Shown here piece after piece: positions 11,663 to 20,576 of a stretch of 59,086 nucleotides of DNA. Below the pieces are notes generated by a model. That model worked only from the letters and a program-made list of their open reading frames with translations, was not told the DNA's origin and searched no databases. The position numbers and the translations under genes were made by a program. Location of the stretch: positions 1 to 59,086 of IMG/VR virus record IMGVR_UViG_3300008108_000133; one strand, written 5' to 3'. Position 1 is the first letter of the stretch, and every line of letters begins with the position of its first letter. This DNA is from a virus (taxonomy: Duplodnaviria; Caudoviricetes).

Positions 11663-12742
11663 ATGACTGCTACAATTTCACGTCAACAAAAATCGAATAC
11701 TTGGGAACAATTCTGCAGCTGGATCACCAGCACCGACAACCGCCTCTATGTGGGTTGGTTCGGCGTTCTGATGATCCCCTGCTTGCTTGCTGCAACTACT
11801 TGCTTCATTATCGCATTCATCGGTGCTCCCCCAGTGGACATTGATGGCATCCGTGAACCTGTTGCTGGTTCTCTGATGTACGGAAACAACATCATCTCTG
11901 GTGCTGTTATTCCTTCGTCCAATGCTATTGGACTGCACTTTTACCCCATCTGGGAAGCTGCTTCCCTGGATGAGTGGCTCTACAACGGTGGTCCTTTCCA
12001 ACTTGTTGTATTCCACTTCCTCATCGGCATCTATGCCTATATGGGACGTGAGTGGGAACTCTCCTACCGCCTGGGTATGCGTCCTTGGATCTGCGTTGCT
12101 TACAGCGCACCTGTTGCTGCTGCAAGCGCAGTGTTCCTCGTCTATCCTTTCGGTCAAGGTTCTTTCTCTGATGCGATGCCTCTGGGTATCTCTGGTACAT
12201 TCAACTACATGCTTGTGTTCCAGGCAGAGCACAACATCCTGATGCACCCCTTCCATATGCTTGGAGTTGCTGGTGTCTTCGGTGGTTCTCTGTTCAGTGC
12301 TATGCACGGTTCTCTGGTTACTTCCTCGCTGGTTCGTGAAACCACCGAGAACGAGTCGCAGAACTATGGTTACAAGTTCGGTCAAGAAGAAGAGACTTAT
12401 AACATCGTTGCTGCTCACGGTTATTTCGGTCGCCTTATTTTCCAATACGCTTCCTTTAATAACTCCCGTTCGCTGCACTTCTTCCTCGCTGCTTGGCCCG
12501 TTGTAGGCATCTGGTTCACTGCTCTTGGTGTTTCTACGATGGCCTTCAATTTGAATGGCTTCAACTTTAATCAGTCTATCGTTGATGGACAAGGTAAAGT
12601 TATTAACACCTGGGCTGACGTTCTAAACCGCGCTGGACTGGGAATGGAGGTAATGCACGAGAGAAATGCTCATAATTTCCCTCTTGACCTCGCTGCTTCT
12701 GAAGCAACTCCTGTTGCTCTTACTGCTCCCGCAATCGGTTGA
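11663..12742 (+). CDS. psbA: photosystem II D1 protein
   Basis: Full 359-aa D1 (MTATISRQQ...[13 protein letters not shown]); no intron; true start ATG 11663. Confidence 0.99.
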
Positions 12743-16929: not shown

Positions 16930-17499
16930 TTAGATGATGTGCCAATCTCCACCGCGACAGAATATGTTTACCGATTGGTAAGGTACTTCCATAACGTATT
17001 TGTCGGCACCATCAATATAACTACCGTCAGTGGTAGTAACGGTGACCTTACGATTTCCTAATGGTGGACCCATCTCTGCTTTCACGATGATTTCACAGCA
17101 GTCGATGCAGTTCTCAGGTAATGAAATAGTAACAGGTTCGTCACTGTTGACACCGATATAGTAATCATCGCAAGTAGCAGTATAATCAGATGAAACCAGG
17201 ACGCTTTTGCACTTACAGGTACACACTCCCGGTTCCCCTTGAGGTCCTGGTGGTCCTTGCGGTCCTGGTGGTCCTTGCGGTCCTGGTGGTCCCGGAGGAC
17301 CCGGAGGGCATTCATCGGGACAATCATCGCCGTCTATAACTACATTGATATTGTTAGTGCCACCGTCACGAGTATTCAGTATCTCTGTTATTTCGGCACG
17401 AATCGACTGAATGTTTCCAAGAACATTTGGATCGTTATTTCTTTGATATTGTGCAAGAAGATTATAAAGATCAATAAGTCTTCTTTCTGCTGAGTCCAT
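16930..17499 (-). CDS. Cys-rich collagen-like protein with the same C-terminal domain
   Basis: GPPGPQ run flanked by CPDEC and CTCKC; [12 protein letters not shown]...RGGDWHII. Confidence 0.75.
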
Positions 17500-17512
17500 A
17501 GTTAGTCTCCTT

Positions 17513-17540
17513 AAAAAAAGAGGGGGAGTTATATCCCCCT
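17513..17540 (-). terminator. terminator/attenuator after the first island gene
   Basis: Minus strand AGGGGGA-UAUAAC-UCCCCCU-CUUUUUUU. Confidence 0.75.
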
Positions 17541-17561
17541 TTAGATAACTACTGAACTAAA

Positions 17562-18389
17562 TCAGCGAACAGCGTTGCTGGTGGAGGACTGACCTACACC
17601 TGCCATGGTTCCAAAGTTAACCATACCCTGACGGGTCTCAGCAATCTGACTATTCAGAGCGTTGAGTTGTGAATTAACTTGTGAGGACAGGGCAGCAAAC
17701 TGGTTGTTGAACAGACCATCTCTGACGCCCCAGTAATCTGAACGGCAACCTTGAAGGTCTGTGTTACGCTCAATCAGAAGACGATTGAGTTCATCATTCT
17801 TGAGAGAATTGATGAGGTCTCTAGTCTTCTCATTTTCGTAAGCAATTTGCTTGCTGGTGTCATACTTGCTCTCAGCAATTTCTCTGCTGAGTTGATGCTG
17901 ACCAAGTGCTACAGCAGTAGCAACTTTTTCTGTTGCAAGGGCATTAGCAGCAGCGGTCTTCTCAGTGGCAAGAAGAATTTCAGAAGATAACTTCTGAGAT
18001 GACATATCTGTGAAAGCTTTCAGAGCAGCAAGGTCACGGGAATTATCAAAGTCTCTTGCTTGAGAAGCAATATAGAAGTCAGCAGCACGTTGCTGAATCT
18101 TGTCAGCAGCTTCATCAATTTTAACTTGGTTGTTATGACCAGTGACTAAAACATCACGGTTGGTGTCTTCTGAAGAAGCAGCAATAGCATACTTGACATC
18201 ACCGAAACCTAATGCTTGCTCTCTACGAATGTCAGAATCGCCAGTGAGAACTGCTTGACGAACATCTGATGCACGAGTAGCAACATCGTAACGGATTTCT
18301 CCACGCTCTACAGAACCTTCTCTACGAATGTCTGAGTGCTGTGCTGCAAGTGCTGCCCAAGGATCGGGCATATATACTTGATCTGCCAT
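17562..18389 (-). CDS. Ala-rich helical protein, probably highly expressed (275 aa)
   Basis: AAGGAG RBS, GCT/CGT/AAC-rich codons, internal SDIRRE repeats, ENEKTRDLI motif. Confidence 0.8.
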   Translation of the reverse strand: MADQVYMPDPWAALAAQHSDIRREGSVERGEIRYDVATRASDVRQAVLTGDSDIRREQALGFGDVKYAIAASSEDTNRDVLVTGHNNQVKIDEAADKIQQRAADFYIASQARDFDNSRDLAALKAFTDMSSQKLSSEILLATEKTAAANALATEKVATAVALGQHQLSREIAESKYDTSKQIAYENEKTRDLINSLKNDELNRLLIERNTDLQGCRSDYWGVRDGLFNNQFAALSSQVNSQLNALNSQIAETRQGMVNFGTMAGVGQSSTSNAVR

Positions 18390-18429
18390 TTTTTTGTTTC
18401 TCCTTAAAGGAAAGAAAGGTTAGTTTGTA

Positions 18430-18630
18430 GAGCAATACAATCCAGATCTTCCCTGACATAATGCCAGAAGAGTCGAGTCCACAGAAGACTGTAGAAGAGT
18501 CCTCTGGGATTATTACACTTCAGAATTGGATTGTATTACCCAATTAGAGGTGAGGCATTAATAAAGGAACCATTGCTGGAATCTTTTAGTAATACATCGG
18601 GTCTCTAATGAAGAGGATTGCTCCTCTTAT
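18430..18630 (-). ncRNA. putative structured leader RNA/ncRNA (three hairpin domains, two GCAA tetraloops)
   Basis: Stems 18611-17/18622-28, 18543-49/18603-09, 18434-44/18527-37, 18458-68/18503-13; extensions pair only as G-U on the minus strand. Confidence 0.65.
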
Positions 18631-18633
18631 CAA

Positions 18634-18640
18634 TATTTAG
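18634..18640 (-). promoter_or_regulatory. T4-type late promoter motif for the island
   Basis: CTAAATA on the minus strand 5 nt before the first hairpin. Confidence 0.55.
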
Positions 18641-18645
18641 TAAAT

Positions 18646-18999
18646 TTATTTTGTCTTAAGATGAACACTTTTTCGTTCTTCTTGCCACTTCAAGAAACCT
18701 GCCATAGTATTTGGATACTTTGGTTTTCTTCTACCTCTTGGTTTCTTTTGATGTTTCATAGCGATTTCATAATTACTCCAAGTTAATTCAAGTTCTTCTG
18801 GTCCGTTATCGAAGTGATAGAATCCATCTGTCCAAAAGTCAAACGAAGATTTATTTTGTATATGATCGCACCACAATTTAAATGATGCAAATACAAATAA
18901 CCATCCAAGTCTGAGTTTTGAAAAGAAGTCTTTGAGTGTGATCATTTTTACTCCTTTAAACTCATCATTATATAGTCTGGGGTAAGTAAAAATTTTCAT
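18646..18999 (-). CDS. hypothetical protein with basic C-terminus
   Basis: ORF track; likely start MITLKD with AAGGAG RBS. Confidence 0.55.
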   Translation of the reverse strand: MKIFTYPRLYNDEFKGVKMITLKDFFSKLRLGWLFVFASFKLWCDHIQNKSSFDFWTDGFYHFDNGPEELELTWSNYEIAMKHQKKPRGRRKPKYPNTMAGFLKWQEERKSVHLKTK

Positions 19000-19027
19000 T
19001 GACTTCTTTTATAAAGTATTGTAAACT
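18999..19027 (+). promoter_or_regulatory. psbD sigma70 promoter with overlapping HLR1-like direct repeat
   Basis: TTGACT-N17-TAAACT; minus strand TTTACAAT-AC-TTTATAAA at 19008-19025. Confidence 0.55.
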
Positions 19028-19053
19028 AAATATGAGAAATAACTAAGGAGGTT

Positions 19054-19914
19054 ATGACTTCTTCAACACTTTCACAACCTATTCAACAACGAGGATGGTT
19101 TGATGTCCTGGATGACTGGCTTAAACGAGATCGCTTTGTATTTGTGGGTTGGTCTGGATTACTACTTTTTCCCACTGCTTATCTTGCCCTTGGTGGCTGG
19201 CTTACTGGCACAACGTTTGTTATAGGGTTTATGCTTCGTCAGTTTGAGATTGCAAGACTTGTAGGCATCCGTCCTTATAACGCTATTGCTTTCTCTGGTC
19301 CTATTGCTGTATTCGTTTCTGTGTTCCTGATGTATCCACTGGGTCAGTCCAGTTGGTTCTTCGCACCTTCCTTTGGTGTTGCAGCGATTTTTAGGTTCCT
19401 CTTATTCCTTCAAGGTTTTCATAACTGGACGCTCAACCCCTTTCATATGATGGGAGTTGCTGGTATACTAGGTGGAGCATTACTCTGTGCAATTCACGGA
19501 GCAACAGTTGAAAATACATTATTTGAAGACAGTGACCAAGCAAACACTTTCAAAGCATTTGAACCGACTCAAGAGGAAGAGACGTATTCTATGGTCACGG
19601 CGAATCGTTTCTGGTCTCAGATTTTTGGTATCGCTTTTAGCAACAAGAGGTGGCTTCATTTCTTTATGCTCTTTGTTCCCGTCATGGGACTCTGGACAAG
19701 TTCCATTGGAATCATTGGTTTGGGTTTGAACTTGAGAGCTTATGATTTTGTAAGTCAGGAGATTCGTGCTGCTGAAGACCCGGAATTTGAAACCTTTGTA
19801 ACAAAGAACATATTATTGAATGAGGGAATTCGTGCTTGGATGGCTCCAGTAGACCAACCACATATGAATCTGGTGCTACCCGAAGAGGTATTACCACGCG
19901 GGAACGCCTTGTGA
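19054..19914 (+). CDS. psbD: photosystem II D2 protein with in-frame internal deletion (~67 aa); may be non-functional or an assembly artefact
   Basis: D2 N- and C-termini intact ([16 protein letters not shown]...LPRGNAL) but GTTFV joined directly to IGFMLRQ; 286 aa. Confidence 0.95.
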
Positions 19915-19941
19915 TAAAAATATAATACCATGTGGAAACGC

Positions 19942-19963
19942 AAAGACCCTTCGGGGTCTTTTT
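19942..19963 (+). terminator. rho-independent terminator
   Basis: aagaccc-TTCG-gggtctt + T tract. Confidence 0.9.
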
Positions 19964-19964
19964 A

Positions 19965-20000
19965 TTGACTAATGACCACAAATATGATATTATATAAATA
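19965..20000 (+). promoter_or_regulatory. sigma70 plus late promoter for the endonuclease
   Basis: TTGACT-N17-TATTAT, then TATAAATA at 19993-20000. Confidence 0.65.
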
Positions 20001-20021
20001 ATAATAGAGTTCTTAAAGAAG

Positions 20022-20576
20022 ATGGGATTAAATAATAAATCTATACCTTGCGGTGAATTAGTTGGAAGAACATTTGGTAGGTTGACTGTGATAAAAGAAT
20101 ATAGTAATAAAAAATATATTCTATGTGAATGCTCTTGTTCTTGTGGAAAGAAAACAACTTCAACAAGAAGAGAAGGACTTTTGAATGGTAGAACACAATC
20201 TTGTGGTTGTCTTCGTATAGAACGAGCAGTTGAAACTAATAAAAAAAGATTTGACCCAAACGCAGTATCAAAGTCTGTTGAATATAGAATGTTAACAAGG
20301 GCAAAAAGTAGAGCAAAACAAAGTGATATTCCATTTAATCTTGAACTTACTGATATAGTCATTCCAGAAACTTGCCCTTTGCTTGGTATTCCTATTGAGA
20401 TACAACCAAAGAAAGGATATCATCCAAATAGTCCTTCATTGGATAAAATCATTCCAGAAAAAGGATACATAAAAGGTAATGTATGGGTTATAAGTAATAG
20501 AGCAAACACTCTTAAAAATGACGCATCCCTACAAGAACTTGAACTACTCGTAGAAAACCTCAAAGCACTTAAATGA
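20022..20576 (+). CDS. free-standing HNH-type homing endonuclease
   Basis: GRTFGRLTV...CSCSCG...SCGC N-terminus; CPLLG, SLDKIIPEKGYIKGNVWVISNRAN nuclease core. Confidence 0.8.
   Translation: MGLNNKSIPCGELVGRTFGRLTVIKEYSNKKYILCECSCSCGKKTTSTRREGLLNGRTQSCGCLRIERAVETNKKRFDPNAVSKSVEYRMLTRAKSRAKQSDIPFNLELTDIVIPETCPLLGIPIEIQPKKGYHPNSPSLDKIIPEKGYIKGNVWVISNRANTLKNDASLQELELLVENLKALK

Follow-up and report, generated by a model that had tools for sequence, protein, structure and literature searches.

The window analysed here, i.e. the whole stretch of 59,086 nt, corresponds to a complete IMG/VR virus record, which is linear and ~24% complete according to CheckV. This T4-like cyanomyovirus of fresh water carries psbA as well as psbD, encoding the D1 and D2 proteins of photosystem II (PSII), on the same strand (Table 1). 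Both genes were recovered with the PF00124 (Photo_RC) profile, and they were the sole matches when the window was searched throughout. The psbA product scored 299.5 bits over profile positions 1-254; the gene contains no stop codons and, judged by its sequence, looks complete. The psbD product reached 184.6 bits at a cut-off of 27, a score that places it in the PsbD/PF00124 family, but its alignment was confined to profile positions 74-255 of 260.

Upstream of psbD, the promoter and ribosome binding site named in a preliminary description of this DNA were recovered as a promoter-like site and a Shine-Dalgarno motif, both of predicted function. The hairpin and T-run 3' of the gene likely form an intrinsic terminator. 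Searches of Pfam with the four ORFs neighbouring psbD yielded no matches. One of them, which is divergently oriented, served as a marker of the phage lineage in the comparisons described below. The gene directly downstream of psbD encodes an endonuclease that matched PHROG family phrog_3322 (E 6e-34) and, more weakly, HNH and endonuclease VII families, with no Pfam match at E <= 0.01; by these matches it may be an endonuclease of the homing type.

Table 1. Features of the psbD region and of psbA. Positions refer to the window unless indicated otherwise.
Feature	Position	Strand	Remarks
psbA (D1)	11744-12616	+	~6.4 kb upstream of psbD
Divergent neighbour ORF	18646-18999	-	117 aa; no Pfam/PHROG match; lineage marker for contigs of the same phage
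Promoter-like site TTGACT-17-TAAACT	18999-19027	+	consensus scan, 9/12 matches
Shine-Dalgarno motif AAGGAGG	19045-19051	+	read directly
psbD (D2) ORF as assembled	19054-19914	+	286 aa, open; 67 internal codons absent
Deletion junction GTT/ATA	19221-19222	+	201 nt of L013 missing; A at 19222 assignable to either breakpoint
Hairpin GACCC-TTCG-GGGTC followed by T-run	19945-19967	+	found by eye; absent from the terminator scan list
Endonuclease gene	20022-20576	+	184 aa
Lineage-specific substitutions in D2	residues 224, 249 and 271 of the 286-aa form; L013:423-1481	+ (window), - (L013)	lumenal C-terminal tail

The psbD gene had been described as lacking about 67 codons precisely and in frame, without any stop codon in the remainder. 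Inspection of the ORF list and comparison with a contig that carries the full-length gene (L013, see below) confirmed this: the reading frame is open over all 286 codons and exactly 201 nt are absent at the point where GTT meets ATA. The absent stretch is indeed the expected TSWYTHG...HGAFAL, corresponding to residues T57 to L123 of the 353-aa form. Comparison with solved D2 structures gave the same picture. D2 chains in the PDB matched the window protein in two stretches (E 6e-168), and in the case of chain 6wj6_D (352 aa) the N-termini coincide and residues 50-286 of the window protein correspond to residues 116-352 of the chain, while the middle is missing; specifically, the equivalents of residues 56-122 of 6wj6_D are absent. 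The canonical protein has ~350 aa and five transmembrane helices (A-E). The 286-aa form falls short of this architecture, whereas the copy on L013, with its 353 aa, conforms to it. The gap is a structural difference against an otherwise identical reference, and no statistical signal is involved.

The missing segment does not reside elsewhere in the window, in agreement with the preliminary description. Here, blastn returned exact matches of 10-15 nt and one 14-nt match at 93% identity, and tblastn returned nothing below E 0.1. These searches, together with the profile search for PF00124 mentioned above, revealed no relocated copy of the segment in the window. Inspection of the breakpoint contexts in the window and in L013 showed that the two breakpoints have a single base in common. 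Hence no direct repeat accounts for the gap, and repeat-mediated deletion was rejected.

Which residues are lost and which are kept had also been proposed, and in this respect the proposal stood at the level of sequence positions. The histidine of the ALHGAF motif (chain position 117), which we take to be D2-His117, the ligand of ChlZ, lies within the missing part. The window protein retains Y94, H123, H131, H148 and H202, which occupy conserved columns and align with chain positions 160, 189, 197, 214 and 268; these are presumably the cofactor and redox residues Tyr160, His189, His197, His214 and His268. From known PSII structures, we assume that the missing part comprises the lumenal loop that follows helix A and the first part of helix B. 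On the same grounds, normal membrane insertion would not be expected of a truncated D2 protein devoid of these parts.

The divergent neighbour ORF was used as lineage marker and searched against IMG/VR and a metagenome collection. In IMG/VR, 10 loci with 75-83% identity were detected, in one of which (L003) psbD is adjacent and of full length. The metagenome collection yielded four loci, and one of them, L013, was 100% identical. This contig of 3118 nt aligned by blastn with window positions 17417-19222 (1806 nt) and 19222-20333 (1112 nt) with zero mismatches and gaps. Both blocks end at window position 19222, and 201 additional nucleotides are located between them in L013. As a result, L013 encodes an intact D2 protein of 353 aa, with which the window protein agrees at every one of its 286 residues. 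The two genes thus share perfectly matching flanks as well as three unusual residues (G, V and M, see below), and differ in that the gene of L013 possesses the 67 codons. Protein look-ups underlined the difference in occurrence: the exact 353-aa protein (P0121) was present on nine JGI/IMG contigs, the longest measuring 239,296 nt, whereas the exact 286-aa protein was present on a single contig, namely the window itself with its 59,086 nt. The nearest syntenic relatives, L003 from IMG/VR and L014 from the metagenome collection, encode 353-aa D2 proteins identical to each other; their psbD genes share 82% nucleotide identity with that of the present phage (dS ~1.1).

Comparison of L013 with L003 gave dN/dS ratios of 0.049 for the whole gene and 0.10 for the segment missing from the window. 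Full-length psbD is accordingly under strong purifying selection, the lost segment included, and the full-length allele of L013 behaves in this regard as a functional auxiliary psbD of a cyanophage does. Between window and L013 there is no substitution at all in 2.9 kb, and consequently the deletion has no measurable age.

It had been suggested to look for the same junction in psbD genes of other phages, and none was found. An exact 42-base junction sequence had 0 matches among the viral contigs, a search that may leave out the record of the window and others nearly identical to it. A degenerate codon pattern spanning the junction had likewise 0 matches in 2.9 million viral contigs and 0 in 241 million metagenome records, where window-like records may again be excluded; in the positive control, this pattern detected the 1 expected site in the window. 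Within the independent contigs and samples searched, there is thus no sign of a recurrent or heritable deletion allele.

The phage itself is widespread in fresh water. The stretch 18600-20000 was present in 20 of the 24 runs listed, which derive from 11 studies and are without exception lake or freshwater metagenomes of the years 2019-2025; a run was counted when it contained at least half of the sampled words of the stretch. Runs X1, X2 and X3, which are possible sources of the window, had shares of 0.98, 0.98 and 0.97, respectively. Logan contigs of X5, X6 and X7, three runs that come from three studies and are not marked as possible sources, were mapped to this stretch, and outside of the gap contigs of all three studies are identical to the window. 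In each of these runs, contigs with 0 differences cease to match at 19222 and then continue into canonical D2 codons. The loose ends read TSWYTHGLAS past the left breakpoint and FVALHGAFAL before the right one. For instance, a piece of 215 nt from X6 (record 11; depth 243.8) extends 113 nt past the left breakpoint, the flanks having depths of ~310 and 167, and a piece from X5 (record 6; 292 nt at a depth of 335) begins 52 nt ahead of the right breakpoint, with flank depths of ~360-386. The depths of pieces that cross a breakpoint resemble those of the phage flanks, indicating that the full-length form makes up most or all of the phage depth in these studies. No piece bridging 19221/19222 was among the 24 listed of 298 pieces from X5-X7, in a type of contig that drops rare variants, and a minor allele with the junction may accordingly be present in these runs. 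Raw reads of X22, a run of 2026, contributed 1 read at ~3% sampling. The preliminary description had named, as a result that would refute it, reads that reveal the full-length allele and no support for the junction. At the level of contigs, this is what was seen in the three other studies as well as in L013.

We also considered why this segment in particular should be affected. At the nucleotide level, no other part of phage psbD turned out to be as conserved as the lost segment. With the missing segment as query, 352 of 417 phage records had at least 80% identity (32 at 90-95% and 320 at 80-90%; maximum 92.6%), compared with 64 of 425 for the remaining 861 nt (one at 90-95% and 63 at 80-90%). 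Altogether, psbD of the window matched 425 phage records, and in 416 of these the query coverage was 80% or more. The segment also stands out by composition, having a G+C content of 53% vs 44% in the flanks and a GC3 value of 0.48 vs 0.27 and 0.40. For the first part of psbD in Synechococcus myoviruses, a clumped distribution of %G+C has been described and ascribed to intragenic recombination (PMC1484495). Unitigs and contigs of X5, X6 and X7 all break inside the segment, and at 19023-19210, just before it, the summed depth rises 2-4 fold in these runs, which shows the presence of psbD contigs of other organisms at 90% likeness or more. Conceivably, the conserved segment acts like a repeat in the assembly graph.

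Apparently, psbD is especially prone to yield such assembly products. The best 120 homologues include 14 singleton ORFs that are internally duplicated over 70-120 residues (P0001-P0005, P0017), rearranged (P0006) or shortened by an internal deletion (P0014, P0022, P0031, P0079, P0102, P0104, P0118), and compensated frameshifts that leave the ORF open are found in P0013 and P0103. The list is ranked by score and favours duplicated forms; it shows that defective ORFs are common, but does not give their frequency. By comparison, clusters of canonical-length psbD comprise as many as 12,364 members. The singleton ORFs resemble psbD of the window in being in frame, open, confined to one-member clusters and defective in or near the N-terminal half, but they have other breakpoints and belong to other lineages, and none has the junction of the window. 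The closest case is P0014, which has nearly the same boundaries (TSWYT joined to GFCLRQ) in a different lineage, its N-terminus being presumably Prochlorococcus-like.

Taken together, we consider it very probable that the gap is private to one contig and does not represent the allele of this phage. The junction more likely arose in assembly or library preparation than in a replicating phage, and on balance we favour an artefact at the level of assembly, i.e. a short-cut via a read that was chimeric or very rare. In such a scenario, the segment would share words with co-occurring psbD variants because it is highly conserved and relatively G+C-rich. These shared words would fragment the assembly graph inside the segment, and the short-cut through the chimeric or very rare read could then have become the path of the contig. 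Two observations speak against an error of this kind. Normally, a de Bruijn assembler does not join sequences unless a read supports the junction, and with an overlap of 1 nt a corresponding molecule or chimeric read was probably present in the source library. Moreover, the contig is exact wherever it was checked, with 0 differences over 2.9 kb. The codon-precise, in-frame nature of the gap does not discriminate, as it has a chance of 1 in 3 under either main reading.

The main rival is a genuine deletion genotype, rare and very recent, which would have been generated in the source lake by illegitimate recombination at 1 nt of microhomology in the course of T4-like recombination-dependent replication. 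We regard this as possible, although the lesser of the two readings, and give the same weight to its corollaries, namely that the psbD allele is a loss-of-function allele, that the phage replicates on its own or through co-infection with the wild-type, and that the assembler took a minority path. A k-mer assembler should need reads containing the junction, the flanks do not differ from those of the full-length allele, as expected if no later changes had occurred, and the phage is so abundant and widespread (20 of 24 runs, 11 studies) that its large populations would allow rare variants to be sampled. In addition, psbD is an auxiliary gene that is absent from many cyanophages, and its loss need not be lethal. 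However, the gap is represented by a single contig as opposed to nine for the full-length form, neither collection contained the junction pattern, and in three other studies the depth of the full-length form is about that of the phage as a whole. Strong purifying selection, extending to the lost segment, also implies that such a variant should be short-lived. That the source lake actually harbours a psbD-defective phage as a minority genotype next to its wild-type parent appears rather unlikely to us. If it did, the loss of an auxiliary photosynthesis gene would have been captured as it happens, possibly in a cheater that depends on co-infecting wild-type phage, and PSII assembly might be disturbed by the truncated product. 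Such a genotype would exemplify, on a small scale, that auxiliary metabolic genes are still being lost, and would not constitute a new kind of system.

The preliminary description had offered a third reading next to misassembly and recent loss of function, namely a decoy or dominant-negative D2. In this case, a truncated subunit would be maintained by the phage and would interfere with PSII assembly in the host. The open frame, the promoter-like site, the Shine-Dalgarno motif and the intact downstream cofactor residues agree with this idea. However, no second occurrence of the junction was found in any collection searched, the absence of substitutions since the deletion argues against evolutionary persistence, the same genotype has the full-length gene in other samples, and loss of the loop after helix A and of the start of helix B should, as outlined above, prevent normal insertion. 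We therefore consider a maintained functional truncation extremely improbable and this part of the proposal unsupported, whereas misassembly and recent loss of function together account for the data.

Cultured cyanomyoviruses were included in the comparison. The psbD genes of S-PM2, syn9, Syn10, S-RIM32 and other Synechococcus cyanomyoviruses share ~78-82% nucleotide identity with psbD of the window, a range that also applies to the DNA flanking the gene, and for the segment as present in L013 the identity to their genes reaches 92.6%. In all 30 phage records listed, psbD aligned in two pieces, leaving ~200 nt of the subject unmatched. Unlike the window, these phages are marine isolates with full-length genes and different neighbour genes. 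An in-frame deletion in psbD of cyanophages was not found in a limited search of the literature, and the main text of PMC1484495 makes no mention of truncation or deletion.

These results call for caution, as contigs from metagenomes and IMG/VR can carry in-frame deletions or duplications in psbD and psbA that resemble engineered or decoy alleles. Contigs misleading in this manner can arise because both genes are very abundant, occur as many near-identical variants per sample and contain highly conserved nucleotide patches. Comparison with other contigs that have exactly the same flanks settles such cases quickly.

Finally, the D2 protein of this phage has three unusual residues, i.e. G in place of A in the motif GLALNL, V in place of Y in ETFYTKN and M in place of E in QPHE. 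When 134 PsbD proteins were sampled, these substitutions were confined to the two forms from this phage (2 of the 100, 131 and 123 proteins, respectively, that matched the motif in question). Relaxed selection following the deletion was considered as their cause and rejected: the full-length allele carries the same residues, which therefore do not reflect decay after the deletion, and the dominant contig of X5 (4341 nt) has no differences. As the full-length protein shares them on nine contigs, the G, V and M substitutions are real traits of the lineage.
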